In this document: positions 18,548 through 62,778 of the stretch, piece by piece
Layout of the letters: each line of letters begins with the position of its first letter
How positions within the stretch are numbered: the stretch's first letter is position 1
Assembly: GCF_029227855.1 (NCBI RefSeq)
Contig: NZ_CP074356.1
From: Escherichia coli
Lineage (GTDB): Bacteria > Pseudomonadota > Gammaproteobacteria > Enterobacterales > Enterobacteriaceae
Reading direction: 5' to 3' (one strand)
DNA: 64,000 nt
The notes under the pieces: generated by a model
Told to the model about the DNA's origin: nothing
Seen by the model: the letters and a program-made list of their open reading frames with translations, nothing else
Databases searched by the model: none
Program-made: the position numbers and the translations under genes

Positions 18548-18549
18548 GA

Positions 18550-20178: not shown

Positions 20179-20346
<168 letters not shown>

Positions 20347-21245: not shown

Positions 21246-21312
21246 GCGTGTTGACAATTTGTTATGAAACACGTATCCCTGTCAGTAATCTCTGCAAAAA
21301 ATGGGATATAAA

Positions 21313-24062: not shown

Positions 24063-24071
24063 GGAACGACC

Positions 24072-39825: not shown

Positions 39826-40919
<1,094 letters not shown>

Positions 40920-41068
40920 TTTACATCCCGGTAATGCAACAAAAGTTAGAGCTTTTAAACGCTGCTACTATACGCGCGCGATTGAGGTTTGGGAATGAGG
41001 GCAAGTTAAGGGAGCGTAAAAATTTATGGGCCTGGAGCGGCCCATAATTTTTTAAAGAGAATTCTGAT

Positions 41069-41362
41069 TTAAAAGAAGAAGAAAATCAGCCCGACAATGA
41101 GAACAATATCAGCAAGCAATGGGCAAAAAATCCCTTGCCAAAGAACCTTCTGCGGACGAAAGCCCACGCCGTGAATCACACCAGCACAGACGGCCCACAT
41201 CAGCAATAAACCATGCCAGATTTCCAGTTCACTGGTCTTCGCGGCGAAACGTGATGGGTCCCAAAACATACATCCGGCTAACAGAAGCGCCATCACGAAG
41301 GAAAGCGCCCGCAGGGGGCGCTTGTCCATTACCGCATACAAGGTTGCGATAATCTTACTCAT
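41069..41362 (-). CDS. ybgE: Inner-membrane protein YbgE (cyd operon)
   Basis: 97 aa hydrophobic ORF MSKIIATLYAVMDKRPLRALSFVMALLLAGCMFW... Confidence 0.9.
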   Translation of the reverse strand: MSKIIATLYAVMDKRPLRALSFVMALLLAGCMFWDPSRFAAKTSELEIWHGLLLMWAVCAGVIHGVGFRPQKVLWQGIFCPLLADIVLIVGLIFFFF

Positions 41363-41475
41363 CAGATGTCTTCTTGACCGGCTTTGCCTGATTCGACGTG
41401 CTCAAGCGCCAGCGCGGTGATTACCCCAAACGAACAGGCAAGAAGCGTTCCCAGAATCCATGCGAAATACCACAT
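41362..41475 (-). CDS. cydX: CydX (YbgT), 37 aa subunit of cytochrome bd-I oxidase
   Basis: My own translation of the minus strand gives MWYFAWILGTLLACSFGVITALALEHVESGKAGQEDI; stop overlaps the ybgE start (ATGA); below the ORF-track size floor. Confidence 0.9.
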   Translation of the reverse strand: MWYFAWILGTLLACSFGVITALALEHVESGKAGQEDI

Positions 41476-41489
41476 TTTTAGCTCCTTAC

Positions 41490-42629: not shown

Positions 42630-42644
42630 TTGACGACTCCTGTC

Positions 42645-44213: not shown

Positions 44214-44550
44214 CATGACTCCTTGCTCATCGCATGAAGACTCCGAGAGTGAACCCCGTTAGAAAGGGTCACACGCATGCCCCAATACAAAATTATTTGC
44301 TCGCCTCTATCGTTGCCATTTCATCAAAAGAGGAAAAGACAATGATAAAAAAGTTACAAATATGTTAATGAATAAACCAAATTGATCCCGTAATTATATT
44401 ACGCCGCAAAATCCTTACAATAAACATGTTTTTATTGAGCAAATTTGCATTTTTCGACAGTGATCAATTTATAGCGAAATTGTCACGATCTCACCAATTT
44501 GATCTACGACAATTTATCGTGTTTTGCAGATTTTTTTCAAGAATTAAAAA

Positions 44551-44564
44551 TTGATTTATATCAA
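44551..44564. promoter_or_regulatory. FNR-type box (TTGAT-N4-ATCAA) in the cydAB upstream regulatory region
   Basis: Perfect match ttgatttatatcaa about 340 bp upstream of the cydA start, within a long AT-rich leader; cydAB is a known FNR/ArcA-controlled operon. Confidence 0.65.
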
Positions 44565-45018
44565 AACCAACCAAATATGTTAATTGTGTATAAACCATAG
44601 ATCATTGGTGATTTTATTGTTAATTTATTGTGAAATATTTATGCAACACAATTATTACAATGAAAAGGTATAGATAAAAAACCAGTGTTTTATTTAACAG
44701 AACCGCCTTATCCACTTTTTATAATACCAATTGATTAGATTAGCCAATTTGTTGCTATTTTACATAACATATTTTTATCAAAGTTAATTGATTGTTGCGT
44801 TTATGAGCACCGGCCGTAAGCCCGTTATGTTATTGTTTCATTAGTAATAATCACTTAAATGTATCGATGAAACAGGTATGACTTAGCGGGAGTGATTGTT
44901 TCTGAGTGAACAGAGACCACTTTCGCCTGATAAATGAAAAATGAGCGATTTTTGCAAGTTAGTTTTTCTATAGCCGAGTACGCTCAGCGCCTCGCTTGAT
45001 TACAATGAGGTTGCTGCT

Positions 45019-45963
45019 ATGAGTCCTGATAATATCAGTTCTGCTGTCAATCGCTTCTCAGGTTGGCCATCTAATGATCCTCTAAAAACAGATAAAGAAT
45101 CAATGACATCACCCATGACTGTGCAGGTAATAAAGATGATTGCCGCCATCCTTGACCCACATCGGATAGTCGTTGGAATCGATACACTTTATACAACGCA
45201 GCGCGAAACATTTACCTCAGAGAGTCAACAGCTCATTGAATCAGCATTGCAAACACTTCATGTGATGAATTTAAATAACCTGGAAACAAATCTCGATGAG
45301 GAAGGTCACTATCTGGCTTTTGGATATAACGTTGACACTCCTGACAGAATAACCGTTTCTGCTTATAATGAAAAAAAGCCTGGCTGCTATGGCCAATGTC
45401 TTTTAATACAGGATGACGAAACAGACTTATTTAACCTGATAAAAGTTAAAATTTTTGAAGCCAGGCATAATTATGTCGCTCAATTGATGAGCGATCCGGA
45501 ATTTATGTTCAAATTTAGTTATAGCGCTCAACAAAATAGATTAGAACCTCATCTTCTGGTTCCCACTTATTTCCCTCTAAAAACAAACGAACCGGTTACG
45601 CAAGAGGATGTACTGTTACTTTATCGTTTCTTTAAAATGGATGGTGATTTTAATATATTAACATCAGATGAATACATGAGTATCATGACACCTCTAATGA
45701 AGTGTGAGCGTAGCATCCACGACCACAACAGGTATGTGACGGGCAAAGATACCCTTCTTCTGGACTATCCTCCTTCTGGTAACCAGATATATTTCCATAT
45801 TTTTCCTGACGAATCAGCAACACTAGTCCTTTATTTTTCAAACAATGACATTGAATGTTTCGTCTTTGAAAGAGATATTCCGAGCCAGTATCGCTTTTTC
45901 AAAATGTTTACCAATCTGGCACTGGTTATTGATCAGTTAACCGATGCCAATCAAATACTTTAA
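45019..45963 (+). CDS. Hypothetical protein, 314 aa, AT-rich accessory gene; no family recognised
   Basis: A long open frame in DNA that is markedly AT-rich (where chance ORFs of this length are unlikely); polar Ser/Thr/Pro-rich N-terminus (MSPDNISSAVNRFSGWPSNDPLKTDKESMTSP), no signal peptide or transmembrane segment evident. Confidence 0.6.
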   Translation: MSPDNISSAVNRFSGWPSNDPLKTDKESMTSPMTVQVIKMIAAILDPHRIVVGIDTLYTTQRETFTSESQQLIESALQTLHVMNLNNLETNLDEEGHYLAFGYNVDTPDRITVSAYNEKKPGCYGQCLLIQDDETDLFNLIKVKIFEARHNYVAQLMSDPEFMFKFSYSAQQNRLEPHLLVPTYFPLKTNEPVTQEDVLLLYRFFKMDGDFNILTSDEYMSIMTPLMKCERSIHDHNRYVTGKDTLLLDYPPSGNQIYFHIFPDESATLVLYFSNNDIECFVFERDIPSQYRFFKMFTNLALVIDQLTDANQIL

Positions 45964-46043
45964 TTTTTATATATTCCCTGTGGCAAATATTGCTAAACAA
46001 TGCCCGGGGATTAATTTTTATTACTCACGGAAAGATTTAAATA

Positions 46044-46466
46044 ATGATCCCATCTCAAATCTCTTTCAACACCCTTCCTGTCAATGCAACATACGCTTCA
46101 GAGACAACAGTTGACACACAAAAATTCTCTGACATCCTCTACTCAGCGGGGTGTTCCCTAAAGGATCTGGCTTATTTGAGCAGATGTCTGGCATCAATAC
46201 ATCCGACTATCGCCAAAAACATTTATGAAACAGAAAATCTCAGCGATCAAAAATTACTACATATTGATTGCCGTAGTACAAATGAAATCAAGATAAATAT
46301 CTTTTTTGGTCGACAACGAGAAGGATTAATTGAAATTAGTTCTGACACAGTCATTTTTTCGATACTGTCTTCATTGATTGACTCCACCATTTCTAAATTT
46401 CAACACCAAAACCCCGTTAACGGTTCTGTAAATCCTGACCTATTGTATGAGGATTATACTGATTAA
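46044..46466 (+). CDS. Hypothetical protein, 140 aa, AT-rich accessory gene; no family recognised
   Basis: ORF 81 bp downstream of the previous gene on the same strand; predominantly acidic, Ser/Thr-rich N-terminus (MIPSQISFNTLPVNATYASETTVDTQKF). Confidence 0.5.
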   Translation: MIPSQISFNTLPVNATYASETTVDTQKFSDILYSAGCSLKDLAYLSRCLASIHPTIAKNIYETENLSDQKLLHIDCRSTNEIKINIFFGRQREGLIEISSDTVIFSILSSLIDSTISKFQHQNPVNGSVNPDLLYEDYTD

Positions 46467-47013
46467 ATCCCTCCTGTCGCGAAAAATGGCCTGCGTTATT
46501 GCCAGACGTAATAAAACTTTTGATTAACGTTTCTCGTACTGGTAGCACCCTCATGTACTTTTCTTTTTTACGAAAAATCAAAAGAGCTAACAAAGGTCAT
46601 AATTCGCATGAATCATTAATTATTTGTTATTTTCAACATTATTTTTACATTAAGCAGAGATGAATTGCAGTGAAATTCGACTTAACTTTTATGAAATGCA
46701 TTTACTCATGGCTAAAGCCACGTCACAAAAATGCAAATTAGAAGTTGATCACAATTATCTCAATACATCAAATCAAGTTAATTTTAAAAATTTAACATTC
46801 ATGACATCAGTTGACATAACACACTGAATTAAAATGAGAATTTGAAAACACACTTTAAACAATCATTTCCCGAAAGACATTTTGAAAATAGATCAATTGC
46901 AACATTACGGTCAGATAAAGACACTCCTGTGATATTAAACCTGTGCCGTTATGAACGGCCATAAATACGACGTGTGTAACTTATTTTACTCTCTGTCTTA
47001 CAAAGGATTACCC

Positions 47014-47463
47014 ATGAAGAAAGCAACACTTGTGATTGGCGTTATTGGCGCGGACTGCCATGCAGTAGGCAATAAAGTTCTGGACCGCGTTTTTAGCAAC
47101 CATGGCTTCAGAGTCATTAATCTGGGCGTAATGGTCAGCCAGGACGAATATATTGATGCTGCCATTGAAACTGGTGCTGACGCGATTGTCGTCTCCTCTA
47201 TCTATGGGCATGGCGATATCGACTGTCTGGACATGCGCGAACGCTGCATCGAGCGTGGACTGGGGGACATCCTGCTCTATGTGGGCGGTAACCTGGTGGT
47301 CGGAAAACATGACTTCGCTGACGTGGAAACCAAATTCAAAGAGATGGGATTTGATCGCGTCTTTGCCCCAAGTCATGACTTAGAAGATGTTTGTCAGCTG
47401 ATGGCCCACGATATCAACCAACGTCATGACGTTGATACTCGTATTCTTGAAGAGGCAATCTGA
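47014..47463 (+). CDS. Glutamate mutase S (sigma) component, B12-binding subunit (methylaspartate mutase small subunit)
   Basis: From the ATG at 47014 (AAGGAT ribosome-binding site): [62 protein letters not shown]...; the DxHxxG cobalamin-binding motif (DCHAVG) and strong similarity to clostridial GlmS/MutS as I remember it. The ORF-track upstream extension is rejected. Confidence 0.88.
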
Positions 47464-48851
47464 TGCAAATCGTCTCTGTCGATATTGGATCGACGTGGAC
47501 CAAAGCAGCCCTCTTCGCCCGGGAGGGGGACGCGTTAACGTTGGTTAACCACGTACTGACCCCAACCACCCCCCATCATCTGGCGAAGGGGTTTTTCTCC
47601 AGTCTGAACCTGGTGTTAAACGTAGATGATGCCCTCCCCCTGTTTAACAGCGGTGAGGTTGCATTGAAGTATTCCTCCTCTGCCAAAGGTGGGCTGGCGG
47701 TTGCCGCAATGGGATTGGTGCCTTCTATCACCCTGGAAACCGCGAAAGTAACCGCTCACTCTGCGGGGGCTAAAATTGCGCAATATTACGCCTACAAGCT
47801 GAACCGCCGTGATATCCAGGCACTGGAAGAAACGCAGCCCGATATTCTCTTGTTCACCGGCGGCACCGACGGCGGAGAAGAAAGCTACGGCCTGAATAAC
47901 GCCCGTGTGCTGGCAGAATCCAAACTCGACTGCGCCATTATTTATGCCGGAAACCGGGATATTCAGGACAAGGTGCAGGAGATCCTAGGGCATAAAGACC
48001 TGACCATCGTCGACAACGTTCTGCCCGATCTTGACCATCCGAACCCTTTAGCTGCACGCCAGGCTATCTGCGACATATTCCTTAAACGCATCGTTAAAGG
48101 GAAAGGGCTGGATGTCGTTGTTGATAAAACAGGCGAAGAACCAATGCCGACACCGTGGACAGTCTTTGAACTGGTTAAGGCAATCAGTAATGTCGATCAC
48201 AGCTGGAAAGAGTTCATGCTGATCGACATGGGCGGCGCAACCACCGATGTCTATTCCGCCTGTGCCAACACGCTCTCGCCCGACACCGTTTTACACGGCG
48301 TACCGGAACCCTTCGTGAAACGGACGGTGGAAGGCGATCTGGGAATGCGCGTCTCGGCAATGGTGGTTGGTGAAAGTGCGAAAGAGTTAGTCAATGTGAA
48401 TTTTGCTCAGCAACCCGCACAGCTGGACGCTTTTTATCATTACCTCCGTCATCTAGTCGCTCATCCCGACTACTTACCCGCGAATTCAGAAGAAAAATAT
48501 TTCGATACCGTCCTGGCCGGACTGTGTGTGGGTTATGCCACCGAAAGACATGCGGGCACCAAAAAAGAGGTCTGCACCTGCGTCGGCAATGTCGATTTAC
48601 AGATGGGACGTGACCTGACAACCGTGCGTAAAGTCGTCGGATCCGGCGGATGGCTCTCGCGTGCCAGTCAGTTCGATATGCATCACTGGTTGAAATACCG
48701 CAAGTTAAACGACGACGGTAAACGCATTCTCTTACCGACCGAATTTGAATATTACCGCGATTCCCGGGGGCTATTACCATTGCTGGCAAACGTCGCCAGA
48801 GTCGATCCGCTGGCCGCCGCGCGCACCAGTATTCAATGCTTAACCCTATAA
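47463..48851 (+). CDS. Glutamate mutase L component (MutL/GlmL-like accessory/reactivating protein)
   Basis: 462 aa [39 protein letters not shown]... (actin-like ATPase N-terminus); start overlaps the stop of the preceding gene (TGATG); position between the S and E subunits as in clostridial operons. Confidence 0.8.
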   Translation: MQIVSVDIGSTWTKAALFAREGDALTLVNHVLTPTTPHHLAKGFFSSLNLVLNVDDALPLFNSGEVALKYSSSAKGGLAVAAMGLVPSITLETAKVTAHSAGAKIAQYYAYKLNRRDIQALEETQPDILLFTGGTDGGEESYGLNNARVLAESKLDCAIIYAGNRDIQDKVQEILGHKDLTIVDNVLPDLDHPNPLAARQAICDIFLKRIVKGKGLDVVVDKTGEEPMPTPWTVFELVKAISNVDHSWKEFMLIDMGGATTDVYSACANTLSPDTVLHGVPEPFVKRTVEGDLGMRVSAMVVGESAKELVNVNFAQQPAQLDAFYHYLRHLVAHPDYLPANSEEKYFDTVLAGLCVGYATERHAGTKKEVCTCVGNVDLQMGRDLTTVRKVVGSGGWLSRASQFDMHHWLKYRKLNDDGKRILLPTEFEYYRDSRGLLPLLANVARVDPLAAARTSIQCLTL

Positions 48852-48869
48852 CAATTAAGGCTGCAATCA

Positions 48870-50315
48870 ATGGAACTTCGAAATAAGAAATTAACCCATG
48901 ACGAATTCATGACCGAGCGGCAACAGGTACTGAAAACCTGGGAAACCGGCAAGGATGTTGAAAACTTTGAAGATGGCGTTAAATACCAACAAACCATTCC
49001 TGAGCATAAACGCTTCTCTCTTGCGCTGTTGAAAGCAGACAAGGAAGGTAAAACCCTTAGCCAACCGCGCGCAGGTGTGGCGCTGATGGACGAACACATC
49101 GAACTACTGAAAACACTACAAGAAGAGTGCGATCTGCTGCCGAGCACTATCGATGCATATACCCGTCTGAATCGGTACGAAGAAGCGGCTGTAGGGATTA
49201 AAAAATCCATCGAAGCCGGAACCTCTAAACTGAACGGTTTGCCGGTAGTTAACCATGGCGTCGCAGCTTGCCGTCGCCTCACCGAAACCCTGCAAAAACC
49301 GCTACAGATCCGCCACGGCACGCCAGATGCGCGTCTGCTGGCTGAAATCTCGATGTCCAGCGGCTTTACCAGTTACGAAGGCGGCGGCATTTCCTACAAC
49401 ATTCCGTATGCCAAACGCGTAACGCTGGAAAAATCGATCCGCGACTGGCAGTACTGCGACCGTTTAATGGGGATGTATGAAGAACACGGGATCCGCATCA
49501 ACCGCGAACCGTTTGGCCCACTAACAGGTACGCTGATCCCGCCGTTTATCTCGCACTCTATCGCGATAATCGAAGGCTTGCTGGCGCTGGAACAGGGTGT
49601 GAAATCTATCACCGTTGGTTATGGACAGGTCGGCAGCCTGACGCAGGATGTTGCGGCGATCCAGTCTCTGCGTGAACTTGCACACGAATATTTTCAGAGC
49701 TATGGCTATACCGACTATGAATTAAGTACCGTGTTTCACCAGTGGATGGGCGGCTTTCCGGAAGACGAATCGAAAGCGTTCGCTATTATCTCCTGGGGCG
49801 CAGCCGTCGCGGGGATGTCTGGTGCCACCAAAGTCATCACCAAAAGCCCGCACGAAGCCTGGGGTATCCCGACTGCCGCTGCCAACATTCAGGGGCTGAA
49901 AGCCTCCCGCCAGATGCTCAACATGGTCAACGAGCAGAAATTCCCGCCGTGCCCTGCGGTTGAACTGGAAATTGAACTGATTAAGAGCGAGGTTCGCGCG
50001 GTACTGAATAAAGTGTTCGAACTGGGTAATGGTGATATTGCGCGCGGTACGGTGCTGGCATTTGAAGCGGGCGTACTGGATGTGCCGTTTGCGCCAGCCG
50101 CCTGCAACGCGGGCAAAATTCTTCCGGTCCGTGACAACACCGGCGCGATACGCGTACTGGAAGCCGGAGCCGTTCCATTGCCAAAAGATATTCTCGACCT
50201 CCACCACGATTACGTTGCTGAACGCGCACGCTTTGAAGGACGCCAACCGACATTCCAGATGGTTGTAGATGACATCAATGCTGTATCCCACAGTAAATTA
50301 ATAGGAAGACCATAA
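48870..50315 (+). CDS. Glutamate mutase E (epsilon) catalytic subunit (methylaspartate mutase large subunit)
   Basis: 481 aa ORF MELRNKKLTHDEFMTERQQVLKTWETGKDVENFEDGVKYQQTIPEHKRFSLALLKADKEGKTLSQPRAGVALMDEHIELLKTLQ... matching remembered GlmE/MutE. Confidence 0.88.
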   Translation: MELRNKKLTHDEFMTERQQVLKTWETGKDVENFEDGVKYQQTIPEHKRFSLALLKADKEGKTLSQPRAGVALMDEHIELLKTLQEECDLLPSTIDAYTRLNRYEEAAVGIKKSIEAGTSKLNGLPVVNHGVAACRRLTETLQKPLQIRHGTPDARLLAEISMSSGFTSYEGGGISYNIPYAKRVTLEKSIRDWQYCDRLMGMYEEHGIRINREPFGPLTGTLIPPFISHSIAIIEGLLALEQGVKSITVGYGQVGSLTQDVAAIQSLRELAHEYFQSYGYTDYELSTVFHQWMGGFPEDESKAFAIISWGAAVAGMSGATKVITKSPHEAWGIPTAAANIQGLKASRQMLNMVNEQKFPPCPAVELEIELIKSEVRAVLNKVFELGNGDIARGTVLAFEAGVLDVPFAPAACNAGKILPVRDNTGAIRVLEAGAVPLPKDILDLHHDYVAERARFEGRQPTFQMVVDDINAVSHSKLIGRP

Positions 50316-51556
50316 TGAAAATAAAACAGGCCCTTTTTACCGCTGGCTACTCCTCATTCTATTTCGATGACCAGCAGGCGATAAAAAACGGAGCGGGTCA
50401 CGACGGTTTTTTTTATACCGGGGAGCCAGTAACACAGGGGTTTAACGCCGTACGTCAGGCCGGGGAGTGCGTATCGGTACAGTTGATTCTGGAAAACGGC
50501 GCGGTCGCCGTAGGTGACTGTGCTGCCGTACAGTATTCCGGGGCAGGCGGTCGCGATCCACTGTTCCTCGCGGAGCACTTTATTCCGTTCCTCAACGACC
50601 ATATCAAGCCATTACTGGTAGGCCGCGATGTGGATGTTTTCCTGCCGAATGCCCGTTTCTTCGACAAATTGCGTATTGACGGCAACTTGCTGCATACCGC
50701 CGTGCGCTACGGATTATCACAGGCTCTGCTTGATGCTACCGCGCTGGCAACCGGCCGTCTGAAAACTGAAGTGATCTGTGATGAATGGCAGTTGCCACGC
50801 GTGGCGGAATCCATTCCATTATTTGGTCAGAGCGGGGACGATCGATATATCGCCGTCGATAAGATGATCCTTAAGGGCATCGACGTGCTGCCCCATGCGC
50901 TGATTAATAACGTCGAAGAGAAGCTGGGCTTTAAAGGTGAAAAACTGCGCGAATATGTCCGCTGGTTGTCGGATCGCATTCTGAGCAAGCGCACCAGCGC
51001 ACGCTACCACCCAATCCTGCACATCGATGTATACGGCACTATCGGTCTGATCTTCGATATGGATCCGCTTCGCTGTGCGCAATACATCGCCAGCCTGGAA
51101 AAAGAAGCGCAAGGCCTGCCGCTCTACATTGAAGGGCCGGTCGATGCCGGTAACAAGCCCGATCAAATTCGCCTGCTGACCGCGATTACCAAAGAGCTGA
51201 CGCGCCTCGGTTCCGGCGTGAAACTAGTGGCCGATGAATGGTGTAACACCTACCAGGATATTGTTGATTTCACAGATGCCGCCAGTTGCCACATGGTGCA
51301 AATCAAAACCCCGGATCTGGGCAGTATTCACAACATCGTCGATGCAGTTCTTTATTGCAACAGCCACAGCATGGAAGCGTACCAGGGCGGCACCTGCAAT
51401 GAAACTGATGTCAGTGCCCGCACCTGTGTCCACGTCGCCCTTGCCGCTCGCCCCATGCGTATGCTGGTAAAACCAGGGATGGGCTTTGACGAAGGCCTCG
51501 ATATCGTCTTCAACGAAATGAATCGTACTATCGCGCTGTTGCAGGCTAAGGATTAA
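50315..51556 (+). CDS. 3-methylaspartate ammonia-lyase (methylaspartase; enolase superfamily)
   Basis: 413 aa ORF MKIKQALFTAGYSSFYFDDQQAIKNGAGHDGFFYTGEPVTQGFNAVRQAGECVSVQLILENG... with conserved blocks (CAAVQYSGAGGRDPLFLA, QSGDDRY, LPHALINNVEEKLG, HMVQIKTPDLG, AKPGMG) shared with the clostridial enzyme; start overlaps the preceding stop. Confidence 0.9.
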   Translation: MKIKQALFTAGYSSFYFDDQQAIKNGAGHDGFFYTGEPVTQGFNAVRQAGECVSVQLILENGAVAVGDCAAVQYSGAGGRDPLFLAEHFIPFLNDHIKPLLVGRDVDVFLPNARFFDKLRIDGNLLHTAVRYGLSQALLDATALATGRLKTEVICDEWQLPRVAESIPLFGQSGDDRYIAVDKMILKGIDVLPHALINNVEEKLGFKGEKLREYVRWLSDRILSKRTSARYHPILHIDVYGTIGLIFDMDPLRCAQYIASLEKEAQGLPLYIEGPVDAGNKPDQIRLLTAITKELTRLGSGVKLVADEWCNTYQDIVDFTDAASCHMVQIKTPDLGSIHNIVDAVLYCNSHSMEAYQGGTCNETDVSARTCVHVALAARPMRMLVKPGMGFDEGLDIVFNEMNRTIALLQAKD

Positions 51557-51559
51557 CAA

Positions 51560-52930
51560 ATGGCTCGTTCTTTTAAAGTCTTATCGCCAACGGCAATCCT
51601 CGGGTATGGATTCCCGGAAGAGAGCTTCCGCAAAGCGATGGCAGAATCGCCCGATCTGATCGCCGTTGATGCAGGCTCTTCCGATCCTGGCCCCCACTAC
51701 CTCGGGGCGGGCAAACCGTTTACCGATCGCGCAGGGGTCAAGCGCGATCTGCGCTATATGATCACCGCAGGCGTGCAAAATAATATACCGGTGGTGATCG
51801 GAACGGCCGGCGGTTCTGGTGCCGCTCCACACCTGGAGTGGTGCCGAGAAATAATTCATGAGATTGCCCGGGAAGAGCACCTCTCGTTCTCGATGGCGTT
51901 GATCCCGGCAGACGTTGACAAAGCCATCGTCCACCAGGCGCTGGATAACGGCAAAATCACGGCGCTGGAGTTTGTCCCGCCGTTAACCCACGACGCGATT
52001 GACGAAAGTACGTATATCGTTGCGCAAATGGGCATCGAACCCTTCCAGCGGGCGCTGAAAGAAGGCGCGCAAGTGGTGCCGGGCGGGCGCGCTTACGACC
52101 CGGCCTGCTTTGCTGCGCTTCCGATCATGCAAGGCTTTGATGAAGGTCTGGCGCTTCATTGTGGGAAAATCCTTGAATGCGCGGCAATCGCCGCAACGCC
52201 CGGCTCAGGCTCTGACTGTGCGATGGGCATCATTGATGACAACGGCTTTACGCTGAAGACATTTAATCCGAAGCGTAAATTTACCGAAACGTCAGCAGCT
52301 GCACACACACTGTATGAGAAATCCGATCCCTACTTCCTGCCTGGACCTGGCGGCGTGTTGAACCTGAAAGGCTGCACATTTAAAGCGGTCAATGACAGCG
52401 AAGTGTACGTCAGCGGTTCTAAGCATGAAGAAACGCCGTATTCCCTGAAACTGGAAGGTGCGCGACGGGTGGGCTTCCGCTGTCTGACCATCGCAGGAAC
52501 GCGCGACCCGATCATGATCGCCGGGATCGATAAAATCATCGATGAAGTCAAAACCAGCGTTTCGCGTAACCTGTCGCTCGACGATGACAGCATTCACATC
52601 AATTTCCACCTGTACGGCAAAAACGGGGTGATGGGCGACCATGAACCGATGCAAACTGCCGGGCATGAGCTGGGGATTGTCCTAGATGTAGTTGCGCCGA
52701 CCCAGGAAATTGCCAACAGCGTTTGCTCGCTGGTGCGCTCTACTATGCTGCACTACGGCTATGAAAACCGCATCGCTACCGCAGGCAACCTGGCGTTCCC
52801 GTTCTCCCCTTCTGATATCCAGGGCGGGCCGGTATACGAATTTTCCATATATCACCTGATTGAAGCCAACGACGCTCTGCGTTTTGATTTCCATATTGAA
52901 CAGGTGACGCCAGAAGGAGTTCAGGCATGA
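51560..52930 (+). CDS. Conserved hypothetical protein, 456 aa (possibly DUF1446/AtuA-like; assignment from memory, unverified)
   Basis: ORF MARSFKVLSPTAILGYGFPEESFRKAMAESPDLIAVDAGSSDPGPHYLGAGKPF... begins 4 bp after the methylaspartase stop; no catalytic motif I can name. Confidence 0.6.
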   Translation: MARSFKVLSPTAILGYGFPEESFRKAMAESPDLIAVDAGSSDPGPHYLGAGKPFTDRAGVKRDLRYMITAGVQNNIPVVIGTAGGSGAAPHLEWCREIIHEIAREEHLSFSMALIPADVDKAIVHQALDNGKITALEFVPPLTHDAIDESTYIVAQMGIEPFQRALKEGAQVVPGGRAYDPACFAALPIMQGFDEGLALHCGKILECAAIAATPGSGSDCAMGIIDDNGFTLKTFNPKRKFTETSAAAHTLYEKSDPYFLPGPGGVLNLKGCTFKAVNDSEVYVSGSKHEETPYSLKLEGARRVGFRCLTIAGTRDPIMIAGIDKIIDEVKTSVSRNLSLDDDSIHINFHLYGKNGVMGDHEPMQTAGHELGIVLDVVAPTQEIANSVCSLVRSTMLHYGYENRIATAGNLAFPFSPSDIQGGPVYEFSIYHLIEANDALRFDFHIEQVTPEGVQA

Positions 52931-53244
52931 AACAGTCAATTGTCTCACTGGCGCAAGTCATTCGTTCGAAAAATGCCGGACCTTACGAACTGGTTTTAGA
53001 TATTTTATTTAAAACGAAAGAAAACTATGAGCGAGTTAAATCATCAGGGCAATTAACCCCAGAACTGATTGCGCGCTTATATCATGTTGAACCTGACTTT
53101 ATTCACCGTATTGTCTGGTTTGATCCTTCTAACGCAGTAAAAATCGTCATGCCACGAGATATTATCTCCGGGAATGTAGGTGACAATGATGTCTATGGTG
53201 CACAGCAACATGCACCTTTATTAAATATGAGTTTCGATTTGTAA
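52927..53244 (+). CDS. Conserved hypothetical protein, 105 aa (possibly DUF4387-like partner of the preceding gene; unverified)
   Basis: ORF MKQSIVSLAQVIRSKNAGPYELVLDILFKTKENYERVKSSGQLTPELIARLYH...; start codon overlaps the stop of the upstream gene (ATGA), implying translational coupling. Confidence 0.55.
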   Translation: MKQSIVSLAQVIRSKNAGPYELVLDILFKTKENYERVKSSGQLTPELIARLYHVEPDFIHRIVWFDPSNAVKIVMPRDIISGNVGDNDVYGAQQHAPLLNMSFDL

Positions 53245-53404
53245 AAATCCGAATACTTTTAGCCAACTGACATCCCGTCACTTATTGCAGTTCAACACTT
53301 CAGCTATTTGTAAGGTTGTAATAGCAGGTAGATGCCTGAATCTCTATTCAGGCATCTACTTCTCCTGATTCTGATTTATCGCCGTGCACCTGATGGAGGA
53401 AAAA

Positions 53405-54685
53405 ATGAAGAAAATAAGTTTAACCACGATGATTCTTTTGGCGCTGGTACTTGGAATGATTATCGGCGTAGTGCTCAATAACACTGCTTCACCGGAAACC
53501 GCAAAACTCTATGCGCAAGAAATATCGATATTCACGACGATTTTCTTACGACTGATAAAAATGATTATCGCTCCGTTAGTGGTCTCTACCCTGGTGGTAG
53601 GTATAGCTAAAATGGGCGATGCCAAAGCCCTTGGTCGTATTTTTTCTAAAACACTCTTTTTATTTATTTGCGCCTCATTGCTGTCAATTGCCTTAGGCTT
53701 GATAACAGTAAATTTCTTCATGCCAGGCACAGGAATTAATTTTGTTGCACACGGAGCCGAAACCACCGGAGTGGTCGCGTCAGAACCCTTTACGCTAAAA
53801 GTATTTATTTCGCATGCTTTCCCCACCAGCATTGTCGATGCCATGGCGCACAATGAAATTTTGCAAATCGTGGTGTTCTCAATTTTCCTCGGCTGTAGCC
53901 TGACGGCGATTGGCGAGAAAGGCAGCGCCATCGTTCACGCCTTAGATTCGCTGGCACATGCCATGTTAAAGCTCACTGGCTACGTCATGCTCTTCGCTCC
54001 CCTGACCGTATTCGCTGCTATTTCAGCATTGATTGCTGAACGAGGACTGGCAGTTATGGTGAGCGCCGGGATCTTTATGGGTGAATTTTATTTCACCATG
54101 TTATTACTTTGGGTGCTGCTTATCGGTCTGGCCATCGTTTATGTTGGCCCCTGCATCAGACGCCTGACCCGCGCCCTTTCGGAACCCGCCCTGCTGGCAT
54201 TTACCACATCCAGTTCTGAAGCGGCTTTTCCGGGAACGCTTGAAAAACTGGAGCAATTTGGCGTTTCCCCAAAAATTGCCAGTTTTGTCTTACCCATTGG
54301 CTACTCATTTAATCTCGTTGGATCAATGGCCTACTGCTCCTTCGCCACAGTTTTCATCGCCCAGGCCTGCAATATCCATTTATCCATCGGTGAGCAAATC
54401 ACCATGCTGTTGATCCTGATGTTGACCTCGAAAGGAATGGCTGGCGTACCACGCGCCTCAATGGTGGTTATCGCCGCCACGCTCAACCAGTTCAATATTC
54501 CGGAAGCGGGGCTGATCTTGCTGATGGGCGTTGATCCGTTCCTTGATATGGGGCGTTCAGCGACAAACGTCATGAGCAACGCAATGGGCGCTGCGATGGT
54601 GAGTCGGTGGGAAGGCGAACATTTCGGCGAGGGCTGTCGGGGTAAAGCATTAAAACCCAATGAATCGAACGTTGCTCTGCCCTGA
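53405..54685 (+). CDS. Dicarboxylate/amino acid:cation symporter (DAACS family; GltP/DctA-like)
   Basis: From the ATG at 53405 (GGAGGA ribosome-binding site): MKKISLTTMILLALVLGMIIGVVLN... multi-pass membrane protein with DAACS-type layout; substrate not inferable from sequence alone. Confidence 0.8.
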   Translation: MKKISLTTMILLALVLGMIIGVVLNNTASPETAKLYAQEISIFTTIFLRLIKMIIAPLVVSTLVVGIAKMGDAKALGRIFSKTLFLFICASLLSIALGLITVNFFMPGTGINFVAHGAETTGVVASEPFTLKVFISHAFPTSIVDAMAHNEILQIVVFSIFLGCSLTAIGEKGSAIVHALDSLAHAMLKLTGYVMLFAPLTVFAAISALIAERGLAVMVSAGIFMGEFYFTMLLLWVLLIGLAIVYVGPCIRRLTRALSEPALLAFTTSSSEAAFPGTLEKLEQFGVSPKIASFVLPIGYSFNLVGSMAYCSFATVFIAQACNIHLSIGEQITMLLILMLTSKGMAGVPRASMVVIAATLNQFNIPEAGLILLMGVDPFLDMGRSATNVMSNAMGAAMVSRWEGEHFGEGCRGKALKPNESNVALP

Positions 54686-54792
54686 GGGGGATCTTAAGCA
54701 ATCAGAAGCCAATGACTACGCATTTTTATAAGCCGGATCATGAAGTTAGACGGCAATTAAGTAAAACTAACGTTTAAGGTGAAAAGTGAAAT

Positions 54793-56445
54793 ATGTCCAA
54801 ACCATTTATCTGGCAAGAACCGTTTCTACAAAATAAAGACGGTACAGAATATACATTAATTAGCGATCAACATATTACAGTAACGGAATTAGACGGCGAA
54901 GAAGTAATAAAAATCGCTCCTGAAGCATTAACGCTGCTTGCCCGGCAGGCATTTTATGAAGCCTCTTTTTTCTTACGTTCCGCTCATTTGCAACAGGTCG
55001 CCAGCATTCTTAACGATCCGCAGGCCAGTAGTAATGATAAATACGTTGCGTTGCAGTTATTACGTAATGCTGAAGTCTCAGCAAAAGGGGTATTACCCAA
55101 CTGTCAGGATACCGGCACCGCAACTATTGTTGCCAGTAAAGGGCAACAGATATGGACGGGAGGTAACGACGCTGAAGCCTTAAGCAAAGGCATTTACACC
55201 ACTTTTCAGGAAAATAATCTGCGCTTTTCACAAAATGCGCCACTGGATATGTTTACCGAAGTCAATACGCAAACCAATCTCCCGGCGCAGATTGATATCA
55301 GCGCCGTCGCTGGTGATGAGTACCATTTTCTCTGTATTAATAAAGGGGGCGGCTCTGCCAATAAAGCCGCGCTTTATCAGGAAACCAAATCCCTATTGCA
55401 ACCAGAAAAACTGACCGCATTTTTAATCGAAAAAATGAAATCGCTGGGCACCGCTGCCTGCCCGCCTTACCACATCGCCTTTGTCGTCGGAGGACTTTCA
55501 GCCGATCAAACCTTAAAAGTTGCCAAGCTGGCCTCAACGAAATATTACGACAATTTGCCCACCAGCGGAAACGAGCAAGGACAAGCATTCCGTGATATTG
55601 AGCTGGAAAAAGTATTGCTCGAGGCCAGTCAGCAATTTGGTATTGGTGCGCAATTTGGGGGTAAATATTTCGCTCATGATATTCGCGTCATTCGTCTGCC
55701 GCGTCACGGTGGCTCTTGCCCGATAGCTATGGCGCTCTCCTGTTCTGCGGATCGCAATATCAAAGCAAAAATTAACAAGCACGGTATCTGGCTGGAAAAA
55801 CTCGAACACAATCCGGGGCAATATATTCCAGCCTCACTGCGGGAAGAAAATCACGCGCAACATGTACAGCTGGATCTAAACCGTCCGTTGCGTGACGTGA
55901 TGCAGGATCTCGCCAGATTACCGGTAGGCACCCGCGTGTCGTTAAGTGGTCCCATCGTAGTGGCGCGCGATATCGCCCACGCCAAAATAAAAGCGCGGCT
56001 GGATAGCGGCGAACCGATGCCGGATTACCTGAAGCATCATATTGTCTATTACGCTGGCCCGGCGAAAACACCGGAGAACATGGCCTGCGGTTCACTGGGT
56101 CCAACCACGGGCGGTCGAATGGACGGTTATGTCGATACCTTCCAGGCGGTTGGCGGCAGTCTGGTGATGTTATCGAAAGGTCACCGCAGCCAGCAGGTCA
56201 CCGATGCCTGTCACAAACATGGCGGCTTCAATCTGGGAAGTATTGGCGGTGCAGCTGCGTTACTGGCGCAAGAATATGTCAAAAGTCTGCGTTGCCTGGA
56301 ATACCCGGAGCTGGGTATGGAAGCGGTGTGGATGATGGAAGTGGAAAATCTGCCCGCATTCATCCTGGTAGATGATAAAGGCAATAATTTCTTTAGTCAG
56401 TTTGAGCAGCAACACCGCTGCGCCAGTTGCCCTGCGGGACATTAA
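54793..56445 (+). CDS. fumD: Class I (Fe-S) fumarate hydratase paralogue; probable mesaconase/fumarase
   Basis: 550 aa [65 protein letters not shown]... collinear with remembered FumA/FumB (e.g. [41 protein letters not shown] blocks). The symbol is from my recollection of a described O157:H7 paralogue. Confidence 0.85.
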
Positions 56446-56454
56446 GGAAAATGA

Positions 56455-57057
56455 ATGGAAGCGCGAATTTCAACTGAACGGCATGTGCAGCGCCAGCAGA
56501 AATTGAAGGAACAGGTCGATACGCGCATCGCGGCGGCGATAGAGAAAAAAGGGATTTTGATTGTTTTCACCGGCAATGGCAAAGGGAAATCCACTGCCGC
56601 GTTTGGTACTGTGACGCGCGCGGTGGGTCATGGCAAAACGGTGGGGGTTGCGCAGTACATCAAGGGGCAATGGGACAACGGCGAATACAACCTTCTCCAG
56701 CCGCTGGGGGTTGAGTTTCATATTATGGGAACCGGTTTTACCTGGGAGACACAGAACCGGCAAGCGGATATCGACGCGGCGAAAGAGGTCTGGTCGGAAA
56801 GCAAACGGATGCTGGCTGACAAGCGTTACGACTTAGTGGTGCTTGATGAGCTGACCTATATGCTGGCTTACCATTATCTGGATACCGAAGAAGTGATCGC
56901 TTCTCTGCAAAACCGCCCGGCACAACAAAGTGTCATTGTCACCGGACGCGGTTGCCACAGTCAGATATTAAAAATGGCGGATACGGTCAGCGAAATCCGC
57001 CCCGTCAAACATGCTTTTGATAACGGCATTCAGGCGCAGCCGGGTATCGACTGGTAA
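56455..57057 (+). CDS. Cob(I)alamin adenosyltransferase paralogue (CobA/BtuR family)
   Basis: 200 aa ORF with P-loop GNGKGKSTAAFG and blocks shared with E. coli BtuR (RAVGHGK, TGFTWETQNR, LDELTYM, GRGCH, ADTVSE, RPVKHAF). Confidence 0.85.
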   Translation: MEARISTERHVQRQQKLKEQVDTRIAAAIEKKGILIVFTGNGKGKSTAAFGTVTRAVGHGKTVGVAQYIKGQWDNGEYNLLQPLGVEFHIMGTGFTWETQNRQADIDAAKEVWSESKRMLADKRYDLVVLDELTYMLAYHYLDTEEVIASLQNRPAQQSVIVTGRGCHSQILKMADTVSEIRPVKHAFDNGIQAQPGIDW

Positions 57058-57090
57058 TAACTGCGCCTGGCATCCCGCCAGGCGCAGGTT

Positions 57091-57996
57091 TTACATCTCC
57101 TGCGGTACAACCGATTTCGCCAGCAACCATTCACGAAATTGCTGCAAGTGCGGTGAGTCAGACTTCTCTTCCTGCCACGTCATAATAAAACGATTACCGG
57201 TACGAATAGGCACATCACAGGGGATCACCATATCGCCACTATCCAAATCATGTTGAATAGCGAAACGTGGTAACAGCGCCACGCCGAGATTAGAGCGCAC
57301 GGCGGCAATCAGCATTGAAAGCAAATCGAAACGTGGTCCGTTGTTGACCAGTGGACTGCTAACGCCAGATAAAGCAAACCACTCTTCCCAGCCAGTAATA
57401 CGGGTGCTTTGATGCAGAAGTGGTAACTCAGTAAGCAGTTCTGCCACTGACAGTTTTTGATCGGACATTGCAAGCAAACTGCCGCTGCATACCGGCAAAA
57501 TCTCCTCATCAAAGAGATATTCTACTTCCGCCCAGGGCGCGCAAAAATTTTCGCGCATAATGACAGCATCGTACTCCCGATTAAGAAAATCGCCGTTATT
57601 AGCTAAAGAGTGAATATTAACAATAATATCGGGATGTAACTTTGTGAATTCATGTAAATTTGGGATTAACCAGTGGGTACTAAACGTAGGATTCACGGCA
57701 AGTTCAATAACCTGAACCGTAGGCTGCCAGGTCATAATAGTATTGGTATCGCGTTCCAGCTTATTTAATGTTTCTTTTACTATCCCCAGGTAATACTTCC
57801 CTGCATCATTAAGAAAAATACGTTTTTTAGAGTGTGAAAATAACGGAGTATGTAAAAATTCCTCCAGCGCACTCACTTGTCTGAATACAGCACTTTGGGT
57901 TAACGCTAACTCCTCTGCCGCTCTGGTATAACTTTCATAACGTGCGACGACCTCAAAAGTCACCAGCAGCTCCGTTTTAGGTATTTTTCCTCGCAT
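57091..57996 (-). CDS. LysR-family transcriptional regulator
   Basis: Minus ORF with N-terminal helix-turn-helix (LVTFEVVARYESYTRAAEELALTQSAVFRQVSALEEFL) and a LysR substrate-binding domain; start assigned to the Met of MRGKIPKTELL (the ORF track begins 10 codons upstream); start uncertain. Confidence 0.8.
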   Translation of the reverse strand: MRGKIPKTELLVTFEVVARYESYTRAAEELALTQSAVFRQVSALEEFLHTPLFSHSKKRIFLNDAGKYYLGIVKETLNKLERDTNTIMTWQPTVQVIELAVNPTFSTHWLIPNLHEFTKLHPDIIVNIHSLANNGDFLNREYDAVIMRENFCAPWAEVEYLFDEEILPVCSGSLLAMSDQKLSVAELLTELPLLHQSTRITGWEEWFALSGVSSPLVNNGPRFDLLSMLIAAVRSNLGVALLPRFAIQHDLDSGDMVIPCDVPIRTGNRFIMTWQEEKSDSPHLQQFREWLLAKSVVPQEM

Positions 57997-58209
57997 AATT
58001 CCGTCCGTGAAAAAATAACAATTCAAAAATTATTTTATAAAAAACAGTAGCACTAATGAATATCATAATTCAAATAAACAAACCAGTCAGCTATATGTCT
58101 AACCAGGAAAATAAAGTGACAATAATCCTAAAACAGGAATTTCACCTCAGTTATCCGCATGCAATACTTTAAAGCTATTATTGCAAGAATATTATTCATA
58201 TACATGAAT

Positions 58210-58334
58210 ATACTCTAAATAAGTCAAGTTGCAGGAAGGGAACAAATAATGAATTTCCAGAAGCTTACATAAGTAAGTGACCTGAGTGAGCGAACATCGA
58301 TGCAGCACATGCAACTTGAATTATGACAAGTATA
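58210..58334. repeat. Diverged ERIC (IRU) element
   Basis: tatactctaaataagtcaagttgcaggaagg ... agcttacataagtaagtgacctgagtgagcgaac ... gcagcacatgcaacttgaattatgacaagtata aligns along its length with the ERIC copy at 11653-11779, with substitutions. Confidence 0.8.
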
Positions 58335-58585
58335 CAATGATAAATTTATATACCCTATGTTATATATTATCTATGTCCGGTTAAATTGAATGAGTCATGG
58401 CCTTAAAAGACTTCACAAAAGATAATTCCTCTTTAACAATAAGCCAGATTTACCACTTGTAAAACTTGCTATCGCCACATACACTACGCGCGTTTTCTTT
58501 CCCTTTTGCTGGCTGCTGACCGGAAAGACAAAATTACCCTCGCAATACAGGGGGTTGTTTAACGTCTATATTTCAGGACAGCGTT

Positions 58586-59983
58586 ATGCATCATCTTTCA
58601 AGGCTTGATAAAGCCTTTCTGCGCAAAGGGATCCAACTTTCCCGCGCCAACAATATTGTTTCATTATCTCGTCCATCAGGTGCCAGTGCCCGCGTACTGC
58701 TGCCGGACGAACTGCCGCTGGAAGAAAAAGCAGTAACACAACTGCTTGATTTTGCAGAAGTGAAGCTACCAGACCACCCAGGTTATGTGCGCCAGACGTG
58801 CGCGACGCCAGATTTTCATCCCGGCAATGGCGTCCCCGTTGGCGCGGTGGTGGCCTCAACGCCGGATTTAGTCATTCCCGCCGCCATCGGCACCGATATT
58901 TCTTGTGGCATGCGGCTGCTGACGACCGGATTAACACTTGAGCAAGCCGAAGCGCATAAAGACATCATCGCTCAGCGGTTAACGCAAGTGCTGCTGCAAA
59001 ATGAGCGCGATGTTCCGTTATCCGCACAGGCGTTCACTGCGCTTTTTGATGGCGGACCGGCAGATTGCGTGTCGACCTTGCCATCAGCAGGTCTCTGGAC
59101 ACGCACGAATATCCCCCGAATGGTACAAGAGATTGACTGCTGCATTGGGCTTAACGAGCATAACAGTCATTCGCGTTATGCCCCACCCGCCCTGCTGGCA
59201 ACGGACCGCGCATTACTCCGCGATCCTTGTCTGGGTACGCCGGGTTCAGGTAATCATTTTATTGAACTTCAGGTCGTTGATAGCGTGGTTGATCGCCATG
59301 TAGCCTGGCAACAAGGGCTGAAAACAGGCGATATTGTGGTGATGATCCACAGTGGATCGCGAGATGTTGGCTTTTACGTCGGAAGACGCTGGATGGATCG
59401 CGCCCGTGCTGAATGGCCCACCGGACATAAACATCCACAAAGCGGGTTATATGGTCTGGCAGGCGGACTGGCGGAGGAATATCTACAAGCGATAGGAATG
59501 GCTGCGCGTTACGCGTGGTTAAATCGCGTCACAATTGCCGAAATGGTGCGCGTATGTCTCGCCAATCTCTTTCATCAGGACAATTCGCATCTGGTGGTGG
59601 ATGTGCCGCATAACATCATCCTTCGCGAGCATGAAATGAATATTCATCGCAAAGGTGCAACACCGGCACGAGTGGGCGATCTGGCATTAATCCCCGGTTC
59701 AATGGGCGATTATTCGTGGCTTGCAGTCGGTTGCGGCAACCCGGAGTGGCTGTGGTCATGCAGTCACGGAGCAGGACGCAGCCAGCGTCGACAGGCCATG
59801 CGCTCAAGCGCGACTGAAGAGTCAACGCTGCCGTGGCAATGCGTCACATTGCGTGAAGAACGACGTCTTGAAGAAGCGCCAGCGGCTTATAAAGATATTG
59901 GTCCGGTTATCGAAGCCCAACAAGAAGCCGGATTAATTCAACCAGCGGTCAGATTTCGACCGTGGTTAACGTTTAAGGGGTAA
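58586..59983 (+). CDS. RtcB-family protein (RNA 3'-phosphate ligase paralogue), 465 aa
   Basis: ORF with RtcB-like blocks: TPDFHPGNGVPVG, GTDISCGM, GSGNHFIEL, HSGSRDVG, HNIILREHE, SCSHGAGR. No rtcA, rtcR or prfH-like gene adjacent. Confidence 0.8.
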   Translation: MHHLSRLDKAFLRKGIQLSRANNIVSLSRPSGASARVLLPDELPLEEKAVTQLLDFAEVKLPDHPGYVRQTCATPDFHPGNGVPVGAVVASTPDLVIPAAIGTDISCGMRLLTTGLTLEQAEAHKDIIAQRLTQVLLQNERDVPLSAQAFTALFDGGPADCVSTLPSAGLWTRTNIPRMVQEIDCCIGLNEHNSHSRYAPPALLATDRALLRDPCLGTPGSGNHFIELQVVDSVVDRHVAWQQGLKTGDIVVMIHSGSRDVGFYVGRRWMDRARAEWPTGHKHPQSGLYGLAGGLAEEYLQAIGMAARYAWLNRVTIAEMVRVCLANLFHQDNSHLVVDVPHNIILREHEMNIHRKGATPARVGDLALIPGSMGDYSWLAVGCGNPEWLWSCSHGAGRSQRRQAMRSSATEESTLPWQCVTLREERRLEEAPAAYKDIGPVIEAQQEAGLIQPAVRFRPWLTFKG

Positions 59984-60127
59984 CTGAAATGATAAATGGC
60001 CTGCGGTTCTCACGCAGGTCAAATCTGGTATCTGCGTAAGCTAACAAACTTGTTTATCAACAATCTCAGGCCATCCGAAGATGGCCTGAAATTATTGCCC
60101 CCCTTAGATACACTTTTAGCGCAATAA

Positions 60128-62761: not shown

Positions 62762-62778
62762 CGTCGTTTCCTTTTTGT

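Follow-up and report, generated by a model that had tools for sequence, protein, structure and literature searches.

Between cydA and mngB: a probably complete B12-dependent methylaspartate pathway in a mosaic locus of Escherichia coli

In a 64,000-nucleotide stretch of Escherichia coli DNA (contig NZ_CP074356.1, referred to below as the window, whose positions are used throughout), the genes cydA and mngB are separated by a block of about 16 kb. This raises the questions of which pathway the intervening genes encode, how far it leads, and how long the genes have resided there. An original prediction, made from the letters and their open reading frames, had interpreted the block as an accessory cluster for glutamate catabolism, leading via 3-methylaspartate and mesaconate to citramalate. 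According to our analysis, the block very probably encodes a complete chromosomal, B12-dependent methylaspartate pathway, which is linked to a LysR regulator, is probably organized in two units within a mosaic, and is most likely an old resident of its locus. The following paragraphs give the evidence for the individual parts of this explanation and the alternatives that compete with them.

In order to delimit the block, its borders were compared with those of other strains. In the window, cydA is encoded on the minus strand and ends at 44213/44216; from there, the distance to the mngB stop at 60128 is 15.9 kb. In K-12 AB1157 the two genes are indeed neighbours with a spacer of 846 bp, as the original prediction had stated. 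A BLAST comparison of the K-12 locus with the window gave homology for 40000-44584 and then again for 60125-64000; therefore, 15,540 bp of strain-specific DNA replace 475 bp of K-12 spacer. When this 475-bp K-12-specific spacer was compared with the window in a sensitive BLAST search, no island remnant was detected. The chromosome of strain JNEC-KY178, whose RefSeq annotation was used to cross-check the gene calls, matches a 19-kb query around the block with 100% identity, and K-12 matches only the flanks of this query. The absence of the block from K-12 and its presence in O157:H7 Sakai, both expected beforehand, agree with the locus comparison.

The interval contains 13 intact genes, 12 on the forward strand and one on the reverse strand (Table 1); the single reverse gene had been predicted, whereas the number of forward genes had been put at eleven. 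All genes named in the predicted cargo are present, but five had been omitted, namely two ORFans (genes with homologues in Escherichia or E. coli/Shigella only), an AtuA-family/DUF4387 pair, and rtcB. The downstream junction at 59984-60127 is correct as predicted. At the other end, the AT-rich stretch 44217-45018, regarded as a flank, is in part core sequence: it is shared with K-12 up to 44584, and homology to the B2 strain EC958 extends beyond this limit to 44854. The stretch 46467-47013 is not flanking at all, as it lies within the block between the ORFan pair and glmS. Most enzyme genes have a G+C content (GC) of 49-55%, against 31-40% for the two ORFans and the non-coding stretches; if cmlB, lysR, and all intergenic regions are grouped with the ORFans, the low range is 30-45%, and the enzyme genes are host-like. 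Altogether, the block is not one coherent insert but a mosaic of at least three modules.

Table 1. Positions of genes and other features in and next to the block (aa, amino acids; bits, scores of the named NCBIfam models with their cut-offs).
Feature	Position	Strand	Evidence or remark
Core cydA upstream region	44214..44584	-	first 371 bp of the AT-rich stretch; common to K-12, outside the accessory block
DNA absent from K-12	44585..60124		15,540 bp in place of 475 bp K-12 spacer (BLAST)
hyp1, ORFan	45019..45963	+	314 aa, 38% GC; homologues in Escherichia only
hyp2, ORFan	46044..46466	+	140 aa, 37% GC; homologues in E. coli/Shigella only
Likely leader/promoter region of the glm operon	46467..47013	+	AT-rich (32% GC); between ORFan pair and glmS
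Conserved box TTTGAAAATAGATCAATTG	46881..46899	+	dyad TTGA-N7-TCAA (T-N11-A core); candidate LysR operator
glmS, glutamate (methylaspartate) mutase subunit S	47014..47463	+	B12-binding; NF002612 253 bits, cut-off 110
glmL (mutL), glutamate mutase accessory protein/reactivase	47463..48851	+	NF040745 506 bits, cut-off 475; TIGR01319 878 bits
glmE, glutamate mutase catalytic subunit E	48870..50315	+	TIGR01503 863 bits, cut-off 390
mal, 3-methylaspartate ammonia-lyase	50315..51556	+	TIGR01502 544 bits, cut-off 286
cmlA, citramalate lyase large subunit (AtuA/DUF1446 family), predicted	51560..52930	+	456 aa; Pfam AtuA 6e-18 (weak match)
cmlB, citramalate lyase small subunit (DUF4387), predicted	52927..53244	+	105 aa; Pfam DUF4387 3e-39
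Perfect 14-bp inverted repeat	53328..53359	+	between cmlB and symporter gene; hairpin to ~16 bp in fold, z = -3.1 vs shuffled
Dicarboxylate/amino acid:cation symporter (DAACS) family gene	53405..54685	+	DctA 312 bits, GltP 302 bits, both under cut-off
fumD, class I fumarase, mesaconase/fumarase	54793..56445	+	NF011921 1281 bits, cut-off 1060
cobO, ATP:cob(I)alamin adenosyltransferase	56455..57057	+	makes adenosylcobalamin; NF004637 296 bits, cut-off 185; TIGR00708 247 bits, cut-off 168
GC-rich hairpin between convergent cobO and lysR	57061..57087		inverted repeat; 11-bp stem, 9 GC pairs
lysR, LysR-family (GcvA-like) regulator	57091..57996	-	NF008352 219 bits, under cut-off 288
Degenerate ERIC/IRU repeat	58200..58334		in 463-bp spacer 58015-58477, specific to the window's configuration
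rtcB, stand-alone RtcB-family RNA ligase	58586..59983	+	Pfam RtcB PF01139 1e-94, residues 63-465

All six classical pathway proteins (GlmS, GlmL, GlmE, methylaspartase, class I fumarase, and CobO) exceed the curated cut-offs of NCBIfam equivalog or subfamily models, in line with the families named in the original prediction; its calls for the symporter and the regulator also stand, as these are a DAACS member and a GcvA-like LysR protein. GlmS and GlmE pass on equivalog models and are thus assigned to the B12-dependent glutamate mutases. The translation of GlmS shows the cobalamin-binding motif D14-x-H16-x-x-G19, and GlmE matches the Clostridium GlmE structures 1CCW and 6H9E over the full length (E about 1e-189). 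The start of glmS at 47014, which gives a protein of 149 residues and is also the coordinate of the original prediction, is upheld by the RefSeq annotation, by a cross-genus alignment, and by an AAGGA ribosome-binding site; the mechanical list of open reading frames begins the gene at an upstream ATG (46951, 170 residues). Mal is 92.7% identical to the crystallized methylaspartate ammonia-lyase (MAL) of Citrobacter amalonaticus (1KKO). It retains ten of ten checked residues (Q73, Q172, H194, D238, E273, D307, Q329, K331, C361, and L384), which are catalytic or pocket positions according to the MAL structure literature. FumD scores below the cut-offs of the FumA and FumB models and is 98.4% identical to its Sakai orthologue. 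FumD of O157:H7 was assayed biochemically and is a mesaconase, preferring mesaconate (Kronen & Berg 2015, PLoS One 10:e0145098; PMC4682846). For the block as a whole, enzyme activities are predicted from characterized orthologues that are 91-98% identical.

How far the pathway leads depends on the two genes that follow mal. CmlA matches the chain named 'Citramalate lyase, subunit A (cmlA)' of the PDB entries 9ERQ/9EVF over its full length with 91.2% identity (E = 4e-289), and CmlB matches chain B of 9ERQ, 'Citramalate lyase, subunit B (cmlB)', from end to end (E = 5e-57). CmlAB was employed as a direct lyase converting citramalate to pyruvate and acetate in a preprint (bioRxiv 10.64898/2026.01.16.699985). 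A citramalate lyase of the CmlAB type is thus predicted for the block, and if the AtuA/DUF4387 pair is CmlAB, the pathway continues beyond citramalate to pyruvate and acetate. Consequently, the steps from glutamate to citramalate in the original prediction can be kept, whereas its end point has to be moved. The 4-bp overlap of cmlA and cmlB suggests translational coupling. The gene order glmS-mutL-glmE-mal-AtuA-DUF4387 is kept in distant phyla (Riflebacteria and two other distant genomes), where CmlA is still 62-66% identical; one of these distant clusters (L010/L011) has no fumarase gene inside its 10-kb flanks.

A truncated pathway that ends at (S)-citramalate or mesaconate, with the product being secreted or otherwise used and the AtuA/DUF4387 pair being unrelated, is very improbable. 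In favour of such an end, no citramalate lyase activity was seen in extracts of O157:H7, the fate of citramalate was called 'unclear', secretion was raised, and the function of the DUF1446 gene was unknown (PMC4682846). In addition, neither the annotation nor an NCBIfam search revealed genes for a CitDEF-type citramalate lyase in the block. On the other hand, the cluster was not expressed at all in the cells from which those extracts were made, the pair is 91% identical to proteins deposited and used as citramalate lyase CmlA/CmlB, and it directly follows mal even in Riflebacteria. A literature search on the function of DUF1446/DUF4387 and for a primary CmlAB paper yielded only Kronen & Berg 2015 and the one preprint using the enzyme; PADLOC and PHROGs gave no match for CmlAB.

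Several observations concern the composition of the cml genes and their relatives outside the block. The GC of cmlB is 38.7% (33% at third codon positions) as compared to 55% for the overlapping cmlA; despite the low GC, the CmlB protein is 100% conserved among the window strain, Sakai, and 1532WA. In distant phyla, a conserved protein of ~315 residues is encoded directly after DUF4387 (L008 11712-12665; L009 11677-12618; L010 11698-12654). It belongs to no Pfam family, contains a Walker-A-like GxxGSGKST motif, is missing from the enterobacterial clusters, and might assist CmlAB or the mutase as an accessory factor. The Klebsiella pneumoniae IncFIB plasmid NZ_CP054968.1 (L021 6443-14502) carries a paralogous AtuA-family/DUF4387 pair beside a divergent LysR gene; the plasmids concerned are conjugative. 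The neighbours of this pair are genes for two aldehyde dehydrogenases, two alcohol/glucose dehydrogenases, and a fumarate hydratase, without glm or mal, which suggests a CmlAB-like lyase serving another catabolic pathway. In Accumulibacter (L012 10001-11679), a lone AtuA/DUF4387 pair, 67% identical to CmlA, adjoins the rpoBC genes; glutamate mutase, methylaspartase, and fumarase are all absent within 10 kb.

Based on these assignments, the following course of the pathway can be proposed. Glutamate would be taken up, probably by the DAACS symporter, and GlmS/GlmE would convert it to (2S,3S)-3-methylaspartate; CobO would supply adenosylcobalamin made from salvaged corrinoid, and GlmL would reactivate the mutase. 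Mal would then remove ammonia to give mesaconate, FumD would hydrate the latter to (S)-citramalate, and the CmlAB heteromer would cleave citramalate directly into pyruvate and acetate. Assuming standard E. coli metabolism, pyruvate would be processed via pyruvate formate-lyase and acetate kinase, so that glutamate would yield two acetate, formate, and ammonia in a redox-balanced manner, with one ATP gained by substrate-level phosphorylation.

Glutamate need not be the substrate taken up from outside: The cluster might mainly serve external mesaconate, 3-methylaspartate, or citramalate, or glutamate derived from histidine, which we regard as improbable. The symporter, which Kronen & Berg named GltP, is nearer to DctA than to GltP, although it scores below both cut-offs; the hut operon, which leads from histidine to glutamate, adjoins the cluster in other E. 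coli strains; and some enterobacteria have added a glutaminase. However, only a pathway that starts from glutamate needs a glutamate mutase together with a dedicated reactivase and adenosyltransferase, and feeding by histidine or glutamine still passes through glutamate, which extends the explanation given above more than it contradicts it.

Upstream of glmS, the box TTTGAAAATAGATCAATTG is near-invariant in an alignment of E. coli, Pseudescherichia, Enterobacter, and Yersinia, in which the surrounding sequence is unconserved; it occurs once in the window, where 0.01 copies are expected by chance. The box is a candidate site for the adjacent LysR regulator, whose gene accompanies the cluster in these four taxa as well as in Salmonella (five genera in all). 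This regulator would act on the T-N11-A box 115-130 bp upstream of glmS and would probably control both units; in laboratory culture, the AT-rich promoter region may be kept silent. An FNR site was considered for TTTGAAAATAGATCAATTG and rejected, as the half-sites are one base too far apart (TTGAA-N5-ATCAA rather than N4 as in the FNR consensus).

The hairpin at 53328-53359 is probably a partial terminator or an mRNA-stabilizing stem dividing two sub-operons. Non-homologous stem-loops are found at the same position between cmlB and the symporter gene in other genera, and the one of Enterobacter is followed by a T-run. Because of this hairpin, there are probably two units: the widely conserved six-gene core glmSLE-mal-cmlAB and an enterobacterial add-on consisting of the symporter gene, fumD, and cobO. 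The hairpin at 57061-57087 is probably a bidirectional terminator; it was the sole standout in scans for consensus promoters and terminators, whose counts were not above those for shuffled sequence. An Rfam search (E <= 1) over 44000-60300 found no family, and hence no cobalamin riboswitch or known small RNA.

Several points weigh against a working pathway of this kind and have to be set beside the evidence presented so far. Escherichia coli is unable to make corrinoids de novo, and the pathway therefore needs external B12. The symporter passes neither the DctA nor the GltP cut-off, and the activity of CmlAB is deduced from PDB molecule names and from the one preprint that used the enzyme. Moreover, we infer the flux, the assignment of TTTGAAAATAGATCAATTG to the regulator, and the direction of loss versus gain discussed below. 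A further objection comes from the one experimental report found: an O157:H7 strain lacked methylaspartase activity, did not grow anaerobically on glutamate, and was not stimulated by it (Kronen & Berg, PMC4682846); the view of the original prediction that the physiology in E. coli is poorly worked out agrees with that study. A literature search for expression data on the cluster in enterohaemorrhagic E. coli was unproductive.

These points could also be read as signs of a cryptic relic, whose genes are silent, decaying, and without function in present E. coli: Expression and activity were absent in O157:H7 under all conditions tried (PMC4682846), the promoter regions are AT-rich as is typical of silenced DNA, and deletions are frequent in other strains. 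We nevertheless judge this quite improbable, as all open reading frames are intact in the window strain, Sakai, AF46, and 1532WA, and as the ratio of non-synonymous to synonymous substitution rates (dN/dS) of the enzyme genes is 0.04-0.2, with CmlB being 100% and the symporter 99.8% conserved. This pattern points to continuing purifying selection.

Is the block, then, a recent acquisition? Of 5426 complete E. coli genomes, 1135 (20.9%) carry the island core with 95-99% identity, and the published estimate of 2015, which also reported the cluster and its O157:H7 link, was about a quarter of E. coli (PMC4682846). For the pangenome, the term accessory used in the original prediction is thus appropriate (21% of the complete genomes), but loss in K-12-like lineages fits the evidence better than recent gain. 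Most likely, the block is an old resident of a variable, mosaic hotspot between sucD and cydA and was lost repeatedly, K-12-like lineages being among the losers. We favour this reading because of matching dS values, purifying selection, staggered boundaries, decayed variants, a locus shared with other genera, and the lack of integrase, tRNA, and repeats. For the nine concatenated pathway genes glmS-cobO, the comparison with Sakai gave a dS of 0.051 and a dN of 0.005 (dN/dS about 0.10); this dS lies inside the range of the flanking core genes (0.02-0.07; 0.00-0.07 for tolQ-cydA). The left boundary shifts from 44584 in K-12 to 44854 in strains of group B2, and another Escherichia has it on the far side of hyp1. 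In Pseudescherichia vulneris, the cluster is located between cydA and sucD, and in an Enterobacter between mngR and sucD. Salmonella has it on a 416-kb plasmid and, on another contig, near an ISL3 transposase; in Yersinia it occupies a different locus.

A recent horizontal insertion, i.e. the arrival of a classical genomic island in a K-12-like cydA-mngB backbone of this lineage, is unlikely. It would account for the lack of the block in 79% of the complete genomes, for the AT-rich left end with its ORFans, and for the related clusters on the Salmonella plasmid and near the ISL3 transposase. However, the features of a classical integrative island (integrase, tRNA site, and flanking repeats) are absent: The RefSeq annotation of the identical genome lists neither integrase nor transposase in the block, no tRNA gene occurs in 40000-64000, and the only repeats are short ones at chance level, none of them at the boundaries. 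Likewise, the host-like GC of the enzyme genes, their dS at the level of the flanking core, the staggered left boundary, the occupation of the same interval in Pseudescherichia and Enterobacter, several independent deletion derivatives, and a glmS-like remnant in EC958 argue against it. A plasmid location in E. coli was considered as well and discarded: the 'plasmid' matches were records of 0.7-4.9 Mb, the two largest of which are chromosome-sized, and the complete-genome set contained one plasmid place.

The probable long-term residence of the block is illustrated by the variants of the locus. K-12 has nothing between cydA and mngB in its cydA-sucD arrangement. The ST131 strain EC958 has a tetratricopeptide repeat (TPR) gene there (4257-5450 of its locus) and, in the expected place and orientation, a glmS-like stretch of 72 nt (3592-3660 of the EC958 locus), which is 76% identical to window positions 47247-47318 (E = 1.5e-7) and may be a relic of a lost island. 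E2348/69 keeps hyp1, hyp2, and glmS, followed by ISEc13. In 2012C-4502, the segment 49357-58198 is deleted; this internal deletion ends at 58198/58199, at the edge of the ERIC repeat beginning at 58200. Strain 1532WA has the order cydA-hyp1-hyp2-island-lysR-hutHGI-hutD-permease-hutU-rtcB-sucD. In O157:H7 Sakai and AF46, the spacer between lysR and sucD still carries the hutH 3' end as well as two stretches of rtcB, likewise from its 3' end. Due to these hutH and rtcB remnants, the O157 arrangement is to be seen as a deletion derivative of the hut-rtcB one.

Some details of the hut variants deserve to be recorded. The Sakai spacer (locus 22999-23664) retains ~140 bp from the 3' end of hutH, an internal hutH fragment of 61 nt, and two rtcB 3'-end fragments; mngRAB is missing from the O157 arrangement. 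In 1532WA (locus 16767-24508), the full hut operon lies between the island LysR gene and rtcB, so that the route from histidine to glutamate adjoins the one from glutamate to pyruvate and acetate. In another E. coli locus (L017, 5-kb flank), hut and rtcB are adjacent to each other beside sucD; hut is absent from K-12. One could imagine that the sucD-cydA interval is an ancient modular locus for the conversion of amino acids to pyruvate, which ancestrally combined hut with a CmlAB-type methylaspartate pathway, and that the ORFans or RtcB control or protect a silent operon; we consider this speculative extension to be improbable.

The left module consists of the two ORFans. Neither hyp1 nor hyp2 has a Pfam, NCBIfam, PADLOC, or PHROG match, and AlphaFold2 models were unusable (predicted local distance difference test, pLDDT, of 43 and 42, respectively). 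In searches of 5.8 and 1.8 billion proteins, homologues of hyp1 were confined to Escherichia; a full HMMER search with hyp1 against 1.84 billion representatives returned only hyp1 fragments. Nevertheless, both look like real genes: For hyp1, dN/dS is 0.43-0.6 and the 314-codon frame is intact at a dS of 0.51 (where dN/dS is 0.43), and for hyp2, dN/dS is 0.12-0.33. The number of E. coli genomes with the pair is 1138 as compared to 1135 for the metabolic core, and the two are co-inherited in essentially every genome; in one more distant Escherichia, hyp1 adjoins cydA without the metabolic genes.

The right module comprises the spacer with its enterobacterial repetitive intergenic consensus (ERIC, or intergenic repeat unit, IRU) element, rtcB, and the transition to mngB. 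Two ERIC/IRU-type copies, at 58200-58334 and 11644-11779, are 84% identical; the latter contains the ERIC2 primer sequence, AAGTAAGTGACTGGGGTGAGCG, exactly. The metal-binding and His-GMP motifs of RtcB (DISCG, GSGNHF, HSGSR, PHN, SHGAGR) align with those of the T. thermophilus and P. horikoshii proteins. The RtcB domain is complete, but the protein scores under the cut-offs of both NCBIfam subfamilies and hence belongs to neither. Nor does the gene form part of an RtcBA/RtcR operon: its neighbours are the LysR gene and mngB instead of rtcA/rtcR, and in other strains they are sucD and hut genes (hutU). In PADLOC and PHROGs, RtcB matches only phage 'tRNA splicing ligase' families. We conclude that rtcB is a separate module outside the pathway. 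The junction lysR-ERIC-rtcB-mngB was found in ~144 of 5426 genomes.

The neighbouring gene mngB (60128-62761) differs from K-12 by a dS of 0.287 (94% nucleotide identity) and is 90% identical to EC958, whereas the cyd and tol genes nearby have a dS of 0.01-0.10 relative to K-12. The mng operon may thus have undergone recombination events other than those of its surroundings.

The cluster is already known: it was published in 2015, and other workers have since determined the structure of the citramalate lyase and made use of the enzyme. The only departure of the window from the published picture is the combination of its right-hand modules. What can be updated is the 'missing' last enzyme of the published E. 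coli picture, as it appears to be encoded inside the cluster itself in the form of CmlAB; the pathway is therefore complete on paper. The question thus shifts from the fate of citramalate to the conditions that switch the operon on. Glutamate is abundant in the gut, and a B12-dependent, redox-neutral route could give a niche advantage to the carriers, which make up about a fifth of sequenced E. coli, O157:H7 included. For genome scanning, the case is one of a previously described accessory metabolic island that was correctly recognized.

A comparison with known systems finally places the block among its relatives. Compared with the O157:H7/Enterobacteriaceae cluster (Kronen & Berg 2015, PLoS One 10:e0145098), it has the same genes in the same order from hyp1 to LysR, with 93.6-100% protein identity to Sakai, and it is likewise located beside cydA. 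The two differ beyond LysR, where the window has the ERIC spacer, an intact rtcB, and intact mngBA-mngR, whereas Sakai passes via hutH and rtcB remnants straight into sucD. CmlAB of Raoultella planticola (9ERQ/9EVF) has subunits of equal lengths, which align without gaps to those of the window (A subunit 91.2% identical, B subunit near-identical). With the clusters of C. tetanomorphum, C. tetani, and C. cochlearium, the block shares GlmS/GlmE/MutL, methylaspartase, a mesaconase of the class I fumarase type, and the overall chemistry. The Clostridia possess a CitDEF-type citramalate lyase, which depends on an acyl carrier protein (ACP) and is matured by the products of the CitCXG genes; their mesaconase is split (MesAB), and their regulator is of the GntR type; in contrast, the block has CmlAB, a fused FumD, a LysR regulator, and CobO. 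The methylaspartate cycle of haloarchaea has glutamate mutase and methylaspartase in common with the block. However, it serves the assimilation of acetate via mesaconyl-CoA (CoA, coenzyme A) and proceeds without a mesaconase or citramalate lyase step, whereas the block is devoid of CoA-transferase or hydratase genes.

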